From NCBI GenBank assembly GCA_965113315.1, contig OZ220372.1: a stretch of DNA of 64,000 bases; one strand, written 5' to 3'. Shown here one piece after another: positions 2,068 to 59,479 of this stretch. The position numbers were made by a program, and so were the translations under genes. The DNA comes from Podarcis vaucheri. Taxonomy: Eukaryota. The notes below the pieces were generated by a model. It did no database searches, was not told the origin of the DNA, and was given only the letters and a program-made list of their open reading frames with translations. The first letter of the stretch is position 1. Each line of letters opens with the position of its first letter.

Positions 2068-5000
2068 GGCGCGCGCGTCGCGGAGCTTTCGCAATTGGGG
2101 GGGGGGGGGAGAAGAACGCAAAGAGGAAAGGGCAAGGCAACGTCACCTAGAACTACGGAGTGAAGCGAAGAGTTGTAGGCCCCGACTAAAGGGGGTCTCT
2201 GGCGGGTGCGCTTCGGCCTGAGGAGCAGGTGAGAGTGACGTTAGATCAGTTAAGAAGTTCAGAAAAATCGTACTTCATGGATCTGGGAAGGGGGGCAACT
2301 TTTTCTCAGTTCCCTGCTGGGGAAATGCAGACGCACCTATGCATATATGTGCACATCCACATCTATGTCTACATGCAGAGGAAGCTGGAGAAGTTAAAAG
2401 GTATGGTATCACGGATGTGCAAGGCTTTCTTTTCTCTTTGCCTTAAGCATGCAAACAACGCCACCACAACGCACTTCTGATATGTGGGAAGAGCCTGGAA
2501 TCTCTTGCATGCAAAGCGGTTGCTGTGCCATTGAGCTTAACAATGTGGCTGTCCAGTCTAGAATTATAAGGCAGAAATTCACCAGGACCAGTTTCCCCCC
2601 AGAAAAAGCACCAGCTCTTTAGTTCTTGGCGCAGAAGTTTGCAAACAGGGATTGGGGAGAGGGAGTGGCAATCCCACCCCCCACTGAAATTCTATGTCCA
2701 TTATGTGTTAAATCGAATTAACATTTATATTCTCCATTTCCATGCTAAGCTGGGTAAAGTTCACCGCAAAATCGTTTTCTGAAAGAACAAGGGCTTTGAC
2801 ACTAAGAAAAAAAGTGATCGCAACAGCGGCTTGCTTTGGCCACCATGATGCACGCAGGGTTTAGATTAAGATTTGTTATTTCCAGCTCATTATATAAGTT
2901 TTTAAAACTTAAAACTGTAGTGTAGTTAGCCTACCCGAGTGTCTTGCCAGCTAGAAAGGCTGAATTGGTGTTCATCCTCAGAGACTCACTACACCAAGAA
3001 CAGTAATACTAGGGGACCCAGAGGCAATCTGCTTGTGGGGCATGACAAAGAGCTCACTCACACCAATCCTATGAGGTGGGGCAAGCTGGGAGGCACTGCT
3101 TCTTATATTTAGTCCTTGATAGACTAAAAGGAAAGGTGGTGTAGAGATCCAGAGTTAGAGTAGTTATAATGATCTGAGCTATATACTGATCTGAGCTGAT
3201 ACTATCCCAAATCCCCGACTTGTTACAAGTAGCCAGAGCCCAATCTTCAATTCCCAGCATCTCTCCTTGAAAGTTTGGAGGGTGGGAAAGCAAATTTGTT
3301 GGGTAACATTAACATGAGCAGCTCCTGCAGCTGGGCAAAATATCAGAGTTCAAAATAGAAAGATCATGTTTATTTAAATCAGTAGAAGAAAAGGGAACAA
3401 GCTTTAAAAGAAAGCACATATAACTAAAGCAGTCCAAACTATTTACGAAAAATATATATTCATGCAACAGCAGCATAGGTTCATCCTACGCAAGTTAAGG
3501 CAGTCTTCGTCAACCTTTCGTTCAGTCCCCAGATTATGATGCAGCACAACTTCTTTTATCTCTGACCATTGGCTGGGAATGATGGGAGTTACAGCCCAGC
3601 AATATCTGGGGATCCAAGGTTAAAAAGGGGAGAGACAAAAAAACACTGGATCCTCACTCCTTTTATCACAGGAAATATCTGTGGCAGGATCGGACTGGTA
3701 GGGTCCAGGATCCTAGCAGCAGGTGGAACTAGAGCAAATGGCAGGCAGAGCCAACTAATTCTGGCTTTGTCCACATCTTCCTCCATGGTGAGTTTTACAG
3801 GGATTAAGGAGGAGGAAGTTGACAGCCAGGCATCCCACCTCCAGCTATTTGCAGGAAAGAAGACAGGCAGGTAGGGGGCTGGCTGAAGATATTTTGAAGG
3901 TGTGGCAGTACCGTATCTGCCCTTGTGGTCAGGGCAGAACCCCACTGGGTTCCATTGAAAGGCGTTATAATTTTTCTACAATTCCTGAAAATTCTCAGCT
4001 TGGTGTCCAACATCTTGTAGCAGCAAGTCATGTGAAACAGCTTGGACAAGTTCCACCACTCTGTCAGCTTACACAGAAGACTCCTGTACTCACTTCTTCC
4101 TTCTGCTGACAATCATCAGCATGGGATTTTGATGAGGTGACTCTGCTCCTTTAGGAACAGCACCGTTCAAAACTTGAGTCACCATCTCAGCAGGAAAACT
4201 TTCCTCCAGTGCTCAGATGTCATTTGACAACATTTGCCTTAAATGAATTCATCATGAAATTGTAAAGAATTGCACACTTCCACCTCTTTTCACACCACCA
4301 ATTCTTTTGTACAGATTGTGGACAATTTCAGGGTGCCCATTCTGAATGGAGAATTGCCAGAAAGAAGTATGCTGCTTTCTGTACACACATGACTGCAATG
4401 GCAATGCATCTACAGCAAAATTTTGTTTCAAACGAACTTAACATTAGGAGATCAATGGCTATGCAACTGAAGTAAGAGGTCGTAATATAATGATTCTATC
4501 CCTCCCCCAAAAAACACCTGGGCACAAAGTAAAAAGAGTACCCATTTTACTGCAAGTTCCCTAAAGCATGCTGGGGGGAAAAACCCTACAAAATTTACAC
4601 TGATTTAATCATCGTTATTAAATTTATTACCCACCCTTCACCAGCAGGTTCCATAGCAATGCATAGCTAGTCCCATTGACTATTCACTGTTTCATACATT
4701 GTTAACCTAAGATCATGAAACATCTGAGAACTGCTGCTGCTGCAGATATACCTGCCTGTACCAAGCTTGCCAGCAAACACTGCCCGCAGACCTCCTACAT
4801 GTTAGGGAGATAGGCATCCTGTTTTCGCCACATGGTCTCCTTCCACCTCCACAAGGTAGGAAGTTCAGGCAGCACAGGTCTAGAAAGGTTTGTCCTAGAC
4901 TGAAGCAAGAGACCACTCAGGCAGGCACCCTAAGGTGATCAGAGGGAAACAGTATATAACTGCATCATAAAATGACATAGCGCCTTTCACAGACTTTATA

Positions 5001-5509
5001 GTCAGGAAAGACAGCTTCAAATGATTCATTTCTGGCGTCACTCATTTGTTGCATGGAGCATTTGTAAGCCAAAGAAGAAGAAAAACAGCCTGTGTTCAAA
5101 TATTATTATTTTATAGATCCCCACCATTCCTGACCAAGTACTGTGAATGAAAAACCAGTATGTATTCTTGTGTTGTGATAAGAGCTAGAAGTTTACATTC
5201 TGTAAATGTGCGGTTCATGTTATTAAAAAGTGCAATTAATATTTATCACATAGTTTCTTTTATTTGCCATACATGCAATAACTTCAAAAGGAAAAGAAGA
5301 TCAGGGGGGGAAATGCAGCTCTTTCATGCCAAGATGCAAGAGGATTCCTTGTGAACAAAACTGTGTTCACCACTATGCATCAAATCAAATCAAAACTTTA
5401 TTAGCAAAGCCAACAGGCCACAGCTGTACAAAAATTAAAAATGAGAATAGGGATAAAAGGAAGAAAAGAACAGACAAAAGGAGGTCCGTCGGGTGAACAG
5501 GTCTGTCAC

Positions 5510-6472
5510 TCAGATGGTGGCCCTAAATTTCACAGCTCTCTCGATGTACCTCGCGACCTTCTCTGTTATCTGACTGTTCGTATCAGATAATAGAAAATGC
5601 AGTGTAATGTCTGTTGAACGGCCGGGGTTGGAGAGAATGAGTGGAGTAATAATCTCATTCCTTAGGTCTTTGTAAAGAGGGCAAGAAAAAAGGACGTGGG
5701 ACACTGTTTCCGTGTTACCATCTCCACATGGGCAGAGTCGTTTTTCAAATGGGGTCTTTTGGTAACGACCTTCGAGTACAGCAGAGGGAAGAACATCCCA
5801 TCTGGCCAATGTAAAGGCGCGTCTGTATTTTGGGATGGTTAGTTTAGACAAATATGAGGCTGGAGAGTCAAAATGAGAAGGGGGAAAGTAGGTATACCAT
5901 GGGCACAGTTTCTTTAAGATAGTCAGGTTGTTTTGTCGTTCGATGTCTTTCAGGCGCTGGCCTATTAGACTCTTTGCTTTGATGAGGCCCATTGATAGTA
6001 GGGACTGTGAGTGCAGACCGCATGTAAGGAGTTTTTTATGCACAGTTTTAAACCACTTGCTTTCGTAAGGATCTTGCATTACTAACGGCAGTAGACCAGG
6101 AGGATTCAGATTAAGACGAAGCCAATAATTAAATGTTCTCTGCCAGGTCCGAGTTTCCACAGATGGAAGGCAGGCCTCGAGTCGCAATGCTGCGTTTGGA
6201 ACACAGGGGGGGACACCGAGTATTTGCCTTAGAAATTTGGACTGGACAGTTTCAAGACTGGAGCAATGGGTCCCCGTCCAGATTTGCGCCCCGTACAATA
6301 ACTGCGCCAGAGGTTTTGCTTGATAAACTTCAAGGGCTGCTGGGATGTATCTGCCCCCCTTCGTATAGAAGAAGCGGGACAGCATCTTGATGCTTTGAGC
6401 AGCTTTTTCTTTGGCACATTTTTGGTGGACATCCCAGGACCCGGTCGACTGGAAAACGATACCCAGATATTG
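5510..6472 (-). pseudogene. C-terminal fragment of LINE ORF2 (RT 'YLG' region, thumb, CCHC zinc finger)
   Basis: Open frame from QYLGIVFQSTGSW through LLYGAQIW to GRY...RLCPC...ETVSHVLFSCPLY, ending in TGA. Confidence 0.9.
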
Positions 6473-6512
6473 CTCACCGTACCTGTAAAAAACTCACCGT
6501 ACCTGTAAAAAA

Positions 6513-7766
6513 TATTGGCAGAAGCTCTTTAACCTTCTTCCATCCCTTTCTACAAGTGGAAAAAACAAATCCAAGTCGAGTGCCATCAAAGAGACACGTA
6601 AAGTAGATACTCCCATAAAAGAATCTAAATCAAGTTCTGAAGAATCAACACCGAGCTGGGACAAAGGAACTGATCCATCTGCAGTCATATCGCCCCAGAG
6701 TCCTCTCATGGCCAGCACAGAATCAGTAGACAGAGGTGAGCAGGCGACCCAAACTATCGAGGGGAACCACTCCTCTCAAGTTCGACAGATGTTGTGTCCC
6801 AAAAGAGAATGGAGTTTAGTCCTAATCCCACAAAAGCTTGTCTTTGCTAATTACCCTAAACCGCCTAGATTTTACGCAGGGTTGGACCGTACAGACCACT
6901 TTTTGTCCATTATAAGTGGCATTTTACCGGGGGTAGTAAAAGCAACTGACATAGCCGCTATAGAGTATCTACATCAAGATGATTGCTCGGTACGAGCACT
7001 GATTACTTTTTTAGATCATAATCTGGCCAGTTTCATTTTTAGAGCTAAAAACCTATTCAAAAAAGAAAGAATAGTTCTGTTAAGAATATTTGAAAATAGA
7101 GCACCTGCAACCCCTCTGATAGGGCCCAAGAGCATAGGAGTGGAAGTTCACAAAAGGGAAAAAACCAACCACCAAAACCATCGAAATAGAAAGTATAAGT
7201 TCCAGCAGGATCATCCCCACCAAACAGCACCAAATGAAAAAAAGGAAGCCTCACACCCAACTGGCGTCGAGCCTCCCACGTGGGACAGTGAGGACTCCGT
7301 TTGGGAGGAAGAACTCTCGCTGATAAAGCGATTCTGGTCACTGCATTCTCCAGCTCAAACTGAGATCCTGAAAAGATTTGATTTACTTCGAAGCAGACTA
7401 GAAAAAAAGGATGATCAAGGTGAGACAATGAAGGACCCTTATGTGCAGCCTATATCTCCCAAATGTCTGGTGGATAAGAAGACAGTGGGAGGCACCTTTA
7501 AATGTGTGGACGTGGAATTACAATCAGAGCCCCCTGTGATGTACAATAAAGTAAGACCAAAGCAAGGTGTGAAACCTCAAAGCTCCTGGCACAGCTATCT
7601 TAAATTGTCTCCGAATGAATTAGCTTCCCCCCCAACTCCAAAACCTAGCCCCAAATCACCAAGAAAAGAGGATCACTACACTCTCTCCAAGCAGCCAGCC
7701 TCGAAAAGAACCAACGGGTGTGTTTTTTTAGACACCAAAGAATTGCTGGACATGGTGGTGACATAG
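6513..7766 (+). pseudogene. LINE ORF1, 5'-truncated (frame already open upstream of ATG 6708)
   Basis: Stop-free frame from the inversion junction to TAG 7766, directly upstream of and overlapping ORF2. Confidence 0.75.
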
Positions 7767-9777
7767 ATCCAGCCCCCCGAAGGGCCCGGGGCCTAAAAGT
7801 GCTGTCCTGGAATATCGCGGGCTGGCACGCCAAGAAAAATAATCAACAATTTTTGTGTTACCTTAAGCAATTTGACATCATCTTCCTTCAGGAGACATGG
7901 CAGAATGACCCTATATTTCTTAATGGGTATAACTGCCACTACCTGCCTGCCTCTCCATCTCAAAGGGGCGGCAGATCTAGTGGTGGCCTAGCTTGCTTCA
8001 TTTCCACGGAGCTAGCGCACTCCCTAACAGCCCTACCCAGCTGCAACTCTTTAGCAACAGCCGCCCTACTTAGCTTCAAGAGAACTATTCTCTTGCTGGT
8101 CAATGTCTATATCCCCCCAGGCCAAAAAAAACCCGTTGTTAAGGCTACATGGGCTGAGCTAGAGGCGTTTTTAGAGCCACTCGAATCTATTTACCCGTCT
8201 GCCCTGACCATTGTGTGTGGAGATTTCAACGCTCGTATAGGGACAGATGACAACAGTCTACACACTCATTTCAACCAATTTTTGGACACTGAAGAACAGA
8301 CGGATATTGGCGCGACACGTCTGTCCAAAGATAGTAGAAGTAATTTCCCAGGTCTCTGCTTAGTGCAGGCTGCTAGACGGAGGGAACTGCTGATATTAAA
8401 CGGCAATATAGAGGGGGACCGCCCCGGGGAATATACCCATTTCTCCAAGGCTGGGGGAAGTGTTATAGACTATATCTTAATCTCAAGATTTGCTCACAGC
8501 TTTATAAGGAAGTTTCAAGTGGGCCATAATACTCTGAGTGATCACCTACCTCTAATTTTAGAGCTTGTAGGCGGGCCTTTTGACTATTCTATTGCCGAGC
8601 CACAATATATACCTTCTGTAAATTTGGATATACCAGCCCCCAAAAGACTCAAATGGTCCCCAATATTGAATGAAAACCTAACCCTCCTTCTTCAGTCAGT
8701 GGAGTTAAAGCTTATTCGCTCCGCTATTGTATCAGGAAATTCAGCAGCTGCGATTATGGAACGCTTTAAATTACTCTTGGAAAGATTGAAACCCCATTTA
8801 ACAACAGTGATACATAGCTCCGCTACAAAGAGGGCAAAGGACGGAGCTAGCTGGTTTGACCTGGAGTGCAGGCAAACAAGGAGACAAATGAGAACAGCCT
8901 ACCGGAGATACAGGAAATCAGGGACTGCTCTCCTACTCAACGCTTATATTTATCTGAGACGGTCGTATAAACAATTATTAAGGAGAAAGAAACTGGAAGC
9001 TGAAAGAGCCGCATGGCACAGGTTGGTTAAGGCATCGCACGAGAAAGATACTACTTGCTTTTGGCGAACCATATCTGGTCTACTGGACCAGGAGCGCACT
9101 AATTCCATCTGTACAGTGGAACCAATGGAGTGGTTGCGCCATTTTCAATCTTTGTTCTATGACCAGGAAGCCCAACATTACAAACTATGCATTCAACTGG
9201 AGGACCTACCTCATTGGCCAGCAGTAACTTCGAAGGAAGTTGAGAACTTAATTGTACAATTAAAGAACAACAAGGCCCCAGGGAATGATTACATCCCTGC
9301 CGAACTTCTGAAGTCCAACATTGGCTGGTGGGCCCCCCTGCTGGCGTCTTTATTTTCTTGGATCGACTCAACGGGTTTACTCCCAGATGGTTGGACTGAG
9401 GCAATAATTATCCCAATCTACAAAAAAGGTCCCATGACAGATCCGGCGAGTTATAGACCAATCAGCCTTCTGCCTATACTCAGCAAACTATATGCCAAAC
9501 ATCTTTATACCAAGCTAACTAGCTGGCTGGAAACTGAAGCTATTCTAGCGGAAGAGCAAGCGGGTTTCAGGCAAGGCAGATCCACCATAGACCATTGCTT
9601 CACCCTAGCCTATTTAATTGACAAATATGCCAAAAAATCCCGTGGGGTGTTATATGCAGCCTTTATTGATCTAAAGGCTGCTTTCGATTCAATTCCACGT
9701 GTAAGACTCTGGGATAAATTGAGCACCTCTAGCATAGACAAAAGACTATTATTTCTGATCAGCTGTTTATACAAAGA
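7718..9777 (+). pseudogene. N-terminal part of LINE ORF2 (APE endonuclease and early RT domains)
   Basis: SWNIAG, LQETW, NVYIPP, GDFNAR, IDYILIS, SDHLPL (APE); KAPGND, YRPISLL, EQAGFR, FIDLKAAFDS (RT); broken at the TSD. Confidence 0.93.
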
Positions 9778-12044
9778 CACCACTATGCATTATTTTTAAC
9801 TTACCGGTATATGTAATGAAATGGGACAATAGCACCCTCTGTTTCAGTATTTCTAAATTATAATTTCTGAGAGATCCAACAGAATTTGAAAATGTACTGA
9901 CAAAAGGAACAAAAGCAACAACTTCTAAGTAAAGATGTAAGATATGTATGAATATAGATACAAATTATGTGTATCAAAGTAACAGCAAAAATGAGACAAA
10001 ATATTCTGAACGAATACGGCAACCAGTGCCACAGCAGACATTATGCACGTTTAAAAGAAAGTTTCCTTAAACTGTTATTTAAACACCTGCGTACTTTAGT
10101 CACACGATATAATTTTGCAGTTAATCTTTGTTACTACAACTTCTGTTACTACGTTTTTTTAGTTGTGTACCAAAATAGAGATATTTGGAAATTAAACTAA
10201 ATTGGTAACAGGGTACAAATCTGCAAAATATCCCTTAATAAACATATTTGGATATGTCAAAGATATAGTAGGATTAGTGGATGCAGAGCAAGTCAATATA
10301 CTTGCAATAAATATACATTTAATCATCTGTTACAATTAGAAGAAATAATTTATTCTCAAGGTGGGTAAGTAAGTAGATTATAAGAATTTGGAAACTGGTC
10401 CACAGGGTAAAGTTAACATTGGAAGGGTACTTGAAGGTAAACAGACTGCTTCATTTTTACTAGTGTAAATACTAATCAGATATTCATCCATACAGGCTAT
10501 TGGAAACAAGTTAGTGATTTATAGAATAATTCGTTTGCTCAGCAGTTTTTATGGTTCCTTTTACGTTCCTTTTGTTGTTGTTGTAAAAACTAATTATGCA
10601 TACTTGAAAACTTTTTTTATACTTGTATGTTATACCAATAAAAAACCCCACTAATTTGAATAAAGATGTAAGGTTTATGTTATTTAAAATCTAGGTTTAA
10701 AAATAAAGTTCTCCTGAATTAATATCCATGTTTTCCCCCTTCAACATGCTCCCACATTTCTGAGAGATGAAAATTTTCAAGGGTAATACTACAGTATTTT
10801 GTTTCCTTTGGATGAGAATGCGCTAGAGACTTGGGGCAATGTTATTGTTTGTTTTATTTACTAATCTACAGGACGAGCATATCAGAAACACACAACAAGT
10901 AGCTAATCTTCTAGCCCTACGAAAGGTTTTCAGAGCATGCCCTTGCATTCAAAATCGCTTCACTTTTAGCCAGTTTATAGCTCCTTTCTCCCCAAATGTA
11001 AAATTGCAGCAACTTGTTTCAAAGTTTTTTTCCTATCTCTTCTCCAACCAGGTTGGTGAGTATTTGCATTATGTCATTTGGGTTGTATTCATGGAACATC
11101 ATTTGCCATCAGACAAAGGATAAGATCCCCATATCCATAATACAGCTATGTCCATATATGAAATACAGGACAAGGAAGAACTGCACTTAAACCAAATGAT
11201 AAATGACCTGGGAAAGAAAATAAAGAGAATCTTTAACAAGAGGAAGAGTAGAATGTAAGCATAAAACTGCCAGTGTCTTCTCTAAAGTGTGCTGCAATAG
11301 AGAGAGCAGTTTCAAAATGCTTCAGAAAGTGATCAAGGGGGTTGAGCAACAGCCCCATGAGGAACGATTACAACATTTGGAAATTGCTCTCTAAAACTTA
11401 GTAGAAGTGCCAATTATCCAAATAAGTTGGATTGCGCCATATGAACGGGGCCACAATTGTTAGTATTGTTAATACCTGCCTTCTTCAAGATTCTTTCTCT
11501 TTCTCTCACATCGTGATTTCTGTTTCTGCGCCCTTCCCTTGCCACCCTCAATTCCAAGGCAAATATTCAACATTTCCCCATCCCCCCATCTTCAATAATC
11601 CCAAACACATGCACATAACAGAGTGCATCCTGTCCTGCTATATACACACATCCCAACAGATCCCAAACTTGTCAGAGAGTAGCTCCTAAGTACGTGCTAC
11701 CGATTTGGTTCAGAGGAGATTAATAGTAGAAACCGCCAACATGGTGCCCCCTCCGGAAGTTGTGAGCTACACCACCAGTCACTCCCAAGCATTGGTCATG
11801 CAGGCCGGGACTGATGGGAATTGTAATTCACAACATCTGGAAGGCACCATGTTGGCCACCGTTTCTGTAGCACAAATGTAGGCAATGTCTAGGAAACCTA
11901 AGGCCAGGTGCCAATATTTCCCAGTGTCTAGGGACAGAGATGCACATCCATGAATTTGGCAGCTGGTGTTGACTGAACCTGACTTTGACAGGGCAAAAAA
12001 CACTGAGGATGATTGCTTTTAAACTCATGGAAGTTAGGTTTAGT

Positions 12045-19714: not shown

Positions 19715-55344
<35,630 letters not shown>

Positions 55345-57915: not shown

Positions 57916-58310
57916 AAAGGTAAAGGTAAAGGGACCTCTGACCATTAGGTCCAGTCGTGGCCGACTCTGGGGTTGCGGCGCTCATCTCACTTTATTGGCT
58001 GAGGGAGCCGGCGTACAGCTTCCAGGTCATGTGGCCAGCATTATTGGCCGAGGGAGGCAGAGTACAGCTTCCGGGTCATGTGGCCAGCATGACTAAGCCC
58101 CTTCTGGCAAACCAGAGCAGCGCACAGAAACACCGTTTACCTTCCCGCTAGAGCAGTACCTATTTATCTACTTGCACTTTGACATGCTTTCGAACTGCTA
58201 GGTTGGCAGGAGCAACGGGAGCTCACCCCATCGCGGGGATTCGAACCGCCGACCTTCCAATCGGCAGGTCCCAGGCTCTGTGGTTTAACCCACAGAGCCA
58301 CCCGCGTCCC
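57916..58310 (-). mobile_element. Full-length Sauria SINE with (ACCTTT)n tail and an internal 49-bp duplication
   Basis: Same head as the copy at 1-328; tail AAAGGTAAAGGTAAAGG on plus; approximate TSD TA(T/A)GTGCTTA. Confidence 0.92.
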
Positions 58311-59479
58311 TTATAAGTGCTTAGCTGGTTTTATATATGCAATTGTGGACCAGGTGGTAAGACAGTAGCTACTTTTTTGAGCTTTGTAAGGATGCTGTAT
58401 GGAACACTCATGTGGGCCCACTCACACATTGCAGTATTGCATGCAGTGAAACCTAAGTTCTTATCCAAAATATTGGGGACACCTAGATCTATTCTAAGGA
58501 CCTAGACAATTCTAAGGAAATTGCCTGATTAAAGATGGCTTTCATTCAGTGGGAATGCTTACCCAGAAAGTGGCCATCACCTGTTGGCTTAAGACAGTCT
58601 TTTGGCTTCACTTTTGGTTTTATTGGTATCTGAGGATTTGAGGAGTGATTCCTGGGAAGCTATGATGTATGCACTTTTTACTATTTGGGCTTTTCATTAG
58701 CCCACTTGATTATGATGGGCTGCAACTGTGCTCAGTTCTCCAGATGACTTGACTGATGTCAATTTTCAGACCACTATGGAACTGACTGCTGGGTGCTGCT
58801 CCAATACAATATATAAAGATTTTGTCACTCTTCCTGGGAAAGTGCCCCCTTCCTCACATGAGCTAAGATGGCTCCTGATTAATCCTTACAGCTGATGATG
58901 GTGAAAGGAACTATGGGACTCAGTATGGCGAGGCTAGAAATTGCCCAGCTGGATGCCCCAAAGTAGAGGACTTGGCACACTTTTTAACAGAATGCCCTTT
59001 GTATTCAGATTTAACTATTTTGATATCTCAAGCCCTTAAATGTGGGGATGAATAACATTTCTCTCTAAGTATAACTCCATTCCTATTGGCCACTAGAGAT
59101 CACAACAAGTCATACAAGGGCAGCCAAATGTGTCAGATTGGCTCATGAATACACTGAAAGCAACTTTGATCACCCAGCAATGGCTATCAAGTTATATAAC
59201 CAGTCATCAATACTCCTTTATTGGCAGCGCTCACAAAATATTCTGGGGATCGAAAACAACATTGGGACAGCTTGATAGCATCGATATAACTGGAGGCATC
59301 TAACAATTTTTCAAGAAATTACAAAAATATGCAGAGTGTATGATCAAAAGGACAAAAGTATGCAAAACAATAAAAAATAGCTCTACATACGCATCAAGAA
59401 AGCTGATTTTTTTACTACCCAGGAAAAGATTTTGAAAGGTTCACTGAAAACATCAACTTAATGTGCTGCAGTGGAGAAA

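Follow-up and report, generated by a model that had tools for sequence, protein, structure and literature searches.

A young LINE insertion with an inverted 5′ part in the lizard Podarcis vaucheri is consistent with twin priming

We analyzed a 64-kb stretch of the Podarcis vaucheri genome (contig OZ220372.1 of assembly GCA_965113315.1; hereafter the window, with 433 N) containing a long interspersed element (LINE) whose two halves lie in opposite orientations. The halves are bracketed by a single 13-bp target-site duplication, CACCACTATGCAT, with its left copy at 5368–5380 and its right copy at 9778–9790, both on the plus strand. The 13-mer has exactly these two copies in the window, even when one mismatch is allowed; two or more copies arose in 1 of 100 shuffles, and random pairs of flanks gave an exact repeat of at least 13 nt in 1 of 1,949 trials. 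Between the duplications, a stop-free minus-strand frame at 5510–6493 meets stop-free plus-strand frames at 6489–7766 and 7649–9799. Neither a further tail nor a further duplication turned up at the locus, and the window has no other copy of the LINE family. An earlier note, made from the sequence alone, had described one duplication around two opposite halves of one element and explained it by twin priming; the exact 13-mer pair and the match of both halves to one protein, P0201, bear out that layout.

The minus-strand half (5381–6471) is the 3′ end of the element with its tail, as the note had proposed. Read in sense, it carries the 3′ half of open reading frame 2 (ORF2) at 5510–6471, corresponding to family residues 817–1136 and a TGA stop (303 of 320 residues identical to P0201), and a 3′ untranslated region of 129 nt including the tail (5381–5509). 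The motif AATAAA at 5397–5402 lies just upstream of the tail at 5381–5395, which is a (TTTGA)3 microsatellite and not poly(A), its last 2 nt overlapping the duplication. This half contains the thumb of the reverse transcriptase (RT) and a C-terminal CCHC motif, read from the sequence as a C-x-C-x9-H-x4-C knuckle at 5681–5734 (minus strand), whose Pfam match to zf-RVT stayed below the cut-off (E = 0.087). At 5649–5685, 79 and 62 reads of a single sequencing run (X24, described below) share the stretch and depart from it on either side into one consensus per side, perhaps because a related element or short interspersed element (SINE) has the region near the knuckle in common.

The plus-strand half (6491–9780) opens with an ORF1 remnant at 6491–7766 (379 of 424 residues identical to P0224). 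It starts in codon 216 of the 640 of the family ORF1 and runs to the last, and the inverted half is thus itself 5′-truncated. An open ORF2 frame at 7649–9780 (646 of 691 residues identical to P0201) covers the apurinic-type endonuclease (APE; PF03372, E = 3e-14 in Pfam) and the N-terminal part of the RT (positions 3–100 of the 205 in profile PF00078), up to family residue T688. The note's description of an ORF1–APE–RT half ending exactly at the duplication stands as regards the internal RT end, which is flush with it; the ORF1 is not whole, however, and the element reaches 3 nt into the right copy. In the KDTT that the note read across this border, the second T derives from the target, and all 13 family members have LYKDTVL where the window has LYKDTTM. 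Two further candidates were dismissed. An ATG 27 nt upstream of 6491 is, according to the family contigs, the internal M209 and not an ORF1 start, and a minus-strand frame at 6494–6775, which weak tblastn extensions of P0008 and P0041 had put forward as a continuation of the RT, did not match the RT-core profile and was placed by the family contigs in the plus-strand ORF1.

A search with the minus half retrieved the complete 1,136-aa ORF2 P0201, whose identity to the plus half is 93% (over residues 1–691) and to the minus half 95% (817–1136); four Podarcis muralis entries are 97.6–98.0% and 94.7–95.9% identical, respectively. By these protein comparisons we assign both halves to one LINE family, and the possibility raised by the note that they belong to different families found no support. 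The P0201 cluster has 13 members, seven of them P. muralis entries, and the 640-aa family ORF1 has five; less similar sequences belong to Anolis and, in the case of ORF1, to Zootoca. This spread points to a lacertid host near Podarcis. The family length, taken from contig sizes, is about 5.8–6.1 kb. The two halves are complementary and without overlap. The RT stretch missing between them is 386 nt long (128 codons plus 2 nt) and holds the motifs QGCILAP and YADD in the family, and a six-frame profile search of the window found no copy of this core. The catalytic segment is thus missing as claimed in the note, YADD included, although the other motif reads QGCILAP and not QG..LSP.

We used sequencing reads from 4 of 24 listed runs: X1, another sample under the same species label; X17 and X24, from other species; and X15, which may be the sample of the window itself. 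A contig of X1, at the depth of the flanks, connects 5367 directly with 9778, 13 letters being assignable to either side, and the same joint occurs in a single raw read of X24; none was listed in X15 or X17. The empty allele removes exactly 4,410 nt and retains a single 13-mer, as the note had anticipated, which makes the insertion young. Compared with the window, the flanks in X1 carry 13 differences in 744 positions and 13 in 1,023, which marks a distinct lineage, and the insertion could be fixed in a single population. X15 has contigs that cross the left border and cover 14 nt of the tail, and others that start at 9751 (27–30 element letters) and extend into the right flank; all match the window without differences, and their depths of 33.5 and 32.8 agree with the 31.6 of the flanks. 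These element stretches fall under the 31-letter rule used for bridging. The two outer joints, from left flank to minus-strand tail and from plus-strand RT site to right flank, alone fix the inversion. The break points are fixed by loose ends at which family sequence leaves the window: among the rows listed, these were found after 9780 in all four runs, after 6471 in three and before 6491 in one.

Major family contigs match the window at 99.1–100%, those of a further species (X17) included, and both halves fit the major subfamily (e.g., 4 differences in 1,438, 2 in 438, 0 in 321, 5 in 651 and 5 in 546 positions) and not a second one that is about 89–90% alike. Both the insertion and its family are young, in line with the recent insertion posited by the note. 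Family contigs reach depths of 760–1070 against 32, and this rough, depth-based figure suggests some tens of copies. Strand-switch joints from other family copies were not listed in the four runs, but single-copy joints are mostly filtered there and their lack is no evidence.

Short matches between target and element accompany the two proposed priming sites. At the left duplication, the last 2 nt (AT) also match the tail repeat and form the first-primer microhomology. At the right duplication, the second-primer site, the first 3 nt (CAC) are common to the family, which then reads GGTGCTGCAT and regains register at TGCAT, giving 8 matches in 13 (counted by hand). The exact match is consequently 3 nt long and not the 6 nt of the CACCAC microhomology suggested earlier. 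Within the element's own sequence, the first three matches occur at 51 of 4,354 positions, and 3 of 4,354 have them together with 8 of 13. Of the T-stretch about 10 nt upstream, given as an RTE insertion signature in a passage of PMC6007223, the site offers only TT at −8/−9. At the inner joint, the family ends at 6471 and 6491 leave an insert of 19 nt (6472–6490, plus strand), consisting of one G and a copy of 6493–6510 and creating a perfect 20-nt tandem pair at 6473–6512. By its sequence, the insert, overlooked in the first reading, appears to be a templated duplication from the neighboring inverted end. The last five bases of the first cDNA, ATATT at 6467–6471, recur at 6512–6516, 21 nt inside the inverted end, one of seven ATATT sites in the 3,290-nt inverted half.

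We consider twin priming on one LINE RNA, a model reportedly proposed by Ostertag and Kazazian in 2001, the best explanation of the locus, with a probability of roughly 0.8; the insertion would be a dead-on-arrival copy. We infer the order of priming, the use of one RNA rather than two and the manner of joining as follows. The endonuclease would have made staggered nicks 13 nt apart. The end of the plus strand, after 5380, would have annealed by 2 nt to the UUUGA tail and started a 1.09-kb cDNA (1,091 nt), while the 13-nt overhang of the minus strand would have paired inside the RT coding region, with 3 terminal pairs, 8 of 13 Watson–Crick pairs and 2 more possible as G–U/T–G wobbles, and primed a 3.29-kb cDNA (3,290 nt) that stopped in ORF1. 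The first cDNA would have halted, or been trimmed, 386 nt before the second primer, and the cDNA ends would have joined after a short slip recopying about 19 nt, probably via the 5-nt ATATT match. The features that led the note to twin priming, namely one duplication, one family, opposite halves, a tail on the 3′ half and a flush internal break with microhomology, are all present. The reading is supported by the single duplication enclosing both halves together with the precise empty site; by the inverted half being flush with the duplication at an internal RT site, where the match to the target is of a quality seen at just 3 background positions; by complementary, nonoverlapping halves with a 386-nt gap and one tail only; by the likeness of both halves to the same major subfamily; and by ATATT occurring once 21 nt from the inverted end. 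A deletion of 386 nt is the right kind of inner break for twin priming, though far over the L1 median.

Several points weigh against this explanation. In passages of bioRxiv 2024.08.27.596794, the gap of human L1 has a median of 14.5 bp, far exceeded here, and in human tumors the forward part averages 2.6-fold longer, while here the inverted part is the longer one, by a factor of three. The exact microhomology of the second primer is only the 3 nt offered by 51 positions, and the 8-of-13 criterion was chosen after the match was seen. No listed contig spans the inner joint or the whole element, the sequence cannot separate one RNA from two near-identical ones, and the case is a single event.

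The large gap and the reversed length ratio keep alive a variant in which a single event drew on two RNAs of the family, with priming at the tail of one and, from the second nick, at an internal site of the other; this would resemble dual priming or the formation of inverted chimeras. Inverted two-RNA chimeras have been described for L1 (passages of PMC4476161, PMC13174262 and PMC2837659), and the family offers tens of near-identical copies. We nevertheless regard this variant as unlikely: with independent RNAs, only chance would place the second primer no more than about 400 nt from where the first cDNA ended, a span that we estimate at roughly 7% of a 5.8-kb RNA, and there is no second tail, which dual priming needs as defined in the available part of PMC2837659.

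Still less probable is an origin as an ordinary 5′-truncated insertion in which break repair, through microhomology-mediated joining or template switching, subsequently caused an inversion and a partial deletion, or an inversion of the cDNA by a repair polymerase while it was being integrated. The loss of 386 nt and the templated insert of 19 nt resemble polymerase-theta-type repair, and repair also leaves short microhomology, but a break would have been needed exactly at the duplication edge that spared the whole 13 bp and left nothing in sense orientation behind. The likeness of the copy to the major family contigs means that little time has elapsed, and the 8-of-13 match to the whole overhang is predicted by priming. 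Mis-assembly, named in the note as a possible refutation, or two separate or nested adjacent insertions might be suspected from the gaps in the window, the unbridged inner joint and the outer bridges below the 31-letter rule, but we consider them very improbable, as the X15 contigs, though short and possibly from the window's own sample, carry both outer joints without differences at flank depth, the empty allele removes the exact length of the insertion, and neither a second tail nor a second duplication accompanies it.

Sequence comparisons support the placement of the family outside L1. P0201 scored 88 bits in total against human L1 ORF2p, with 0.4 bits in the endonuclease stretch, and 73 bits against R2, in a comparison without a lizard L1 as positive control. 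According to a passage of PMC5381506, L1 of all vertebrates studied has AATAAA and then a poly(A) tail; here, AATAAA is followed by (TTTGA)3. No RNase H domain was found in the ORF2 of P0201, P0202, P0001 and P0051, and a quick tree of 94 of the 207 RT domains, built without clade-labelled references, placed the family in a group of 28 rows with Podarcis and Anolis entries (SH-aLRT 98), apart from 14 rows bearing RNase H. A substantial ORF1 distinguishes RTEX from RTE proper in the text available from PMC3905857, and the 640-aa ORF1 separates the family from the latter. The tail fits the repeat tails other than poly(A) of algal RTEX (a table of PMC3747384), a trait that is shared with other clades and not diagnostic. 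Pfam had no esterase match up to E = 1 in ORF1 of P0224 or P0225, but esterase is not universal in RTEX. Membership in RTEX is plausible on these traits.

We also modeled the ORF1 part at 6786–7118. The model (pLDDT 65) has an RNA-recognition motif (RRM) fold, and its best match among 48,161 chains was human L1 ORF1p (Z 7.3, under the Z 8 caution level; rmsd 2.3; 76 residues aligned), a middling score that tentatively suggests likeness to the L1-type domain. L1-type RRMs also occur outside the L1 clade. The ORF1 gave no match in Pfam, none by sequence to solved structures, none above 0.76 in the ESM Atlas and none in Foldseek at E = 0.001. The N-terminal part of the family ORF1, absent from the window copy, shows by eye a possible coiled coil.

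The two frames of the plus half overlap at 7649–7766, where ORF2 lies in the −1 frame of ORF1, and ORF2 has no in-frame ATG before residue 370 (8756), i.e., beyond the APE domain. An in-phase slippery heptamer, T TTT TTA, lies at 7724–7730. In ORF1 the residues at the heptamer are VFLD in all five family members and IFLD in Zootoca; in ORF2 they are CFFR in the four members reaching the site besides P0219, as well as in P0201. A −1 frameshift yielding an ORF1–ORF2 fusion is possible at this site. Against it weigh the occurrence of such heptamers at 2 of the 383 other ORF1 codons and the fold downstream of the site, which is not above shuffles (z = −0.3).

The insertion seems intergenic. It lies about 10 kb past the stop codon of a plasma-membrane calcium ATPase gene, whose exons were found on the minus strand at 19715–43502 (PF12424, E = 2e-15) and which we take to be ATP2B1-like. 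A GC-rich stretch resembling a promoter, perhaps that of POC1B by synteny, is about 3 kb away at 1600–2230. Other repeats in the window include two SINE copies at 74–331 and 58068–58313 that are 81% alike and, we assume, resemble the lizard Sauria SINE; LINE ORF2 fragments at 22655–23086 and near 46090–46210, presumably L2-type by their look; and a 70-nt tandem duplication at 49525–49666 with 98% likeness. A short relic at 4615–4653 belongs to a high-copy repeat, the stretch being shared by many contigs and reads that leave on both sides. Rfam had no match in the window.

The layout of the insertion is that of twin-primed L1 as described in passages of PMC2912911, PMC2837659 and bioRxiv 2024.08.27.596794. 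As in 5′-inverted L1 of mammals, of which excerpts of PMC2912911 report about 31% among recent human and chimpanzee insertions, one duplication of 10–20 bp surrounds a sense 3′ part and an inverted, 5′-truncated part, with an internal deletion and microhomology at the target and possibly at the inner joint. It differs in its lizard host, an RT far from L1, a microsatellite tail, a nick site of GCAT/TATT in place of TTTT/A and, as detailed above, in the size of the gap and the ratio of the parts. The one non-L1 case in the literature searched is a single zebrafish Nimb-2_DR insert in chicken DT40 cells, likewise a LINE in a nonmammalian cell, with duplications of about 12 bp and a 5′ inversion; in the sections of PMC4245944 at hand, inversions in culture were otherwise seen only with L1 in human cells. 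That insert was engineered; the present one arose naturally in the germ line, has an empty allele and comes from a lineage without RNase H. With RTEX-like LINEs of squamates, such as the relatives in Podarcis, Zootoca and Anolis, the family shares the lizard host, a long ORF1, an APE–RT ORF2 and a repeat tail other than poly(A); no esterase was found in its ORF1. An RTEX-2_Acar is named in the accessible part of PMC4476161. The literature searched, which excluded subscription papers, held no report of inverted RTEX or squamate non-L1 copies, although Kojima and Okada 2009 and Ichiyanagi and Okada 2008 may hold non-L1 counts. In the accessible text of PMC5389967, PMC2718515 and PMC6007223, twin priming occurs in the reference lists only, and that of PMC6050309 contained no matching passage.

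The locus provides one clean case of an already known process in a group where it is new, and a single insertion underlies the note's inference that the mechanism also works in this clade. In the passages available from PMC4245944 and PMC2912911, 5′ inversion is treated as nearly exclusive to L1 in mammalian cells; a natural germ-line case from a reptile non-L1 element, with both junctions, an empty allele and exact break points, indicates that this exclusivity is not absolute. An overhang of 10–20 nt is proposed as a requirement for inversion in the same part of PMC4245944, and the 13-nt overhang here fits the idea that overhang length decides, though one event changes little. We find it doubtful, if conceivable, that members of this young non-L1 lizard family routinely insert by twin priming, about as often as mammalian L1 (some 30% in PMC2912911). 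If they did, the determinants of the process would be a long 3′ overhang and a chaperone of the L1 ORF1p type, and not the RT of L1 or host factors of mammals, and the intact members of the family would make it a test system.

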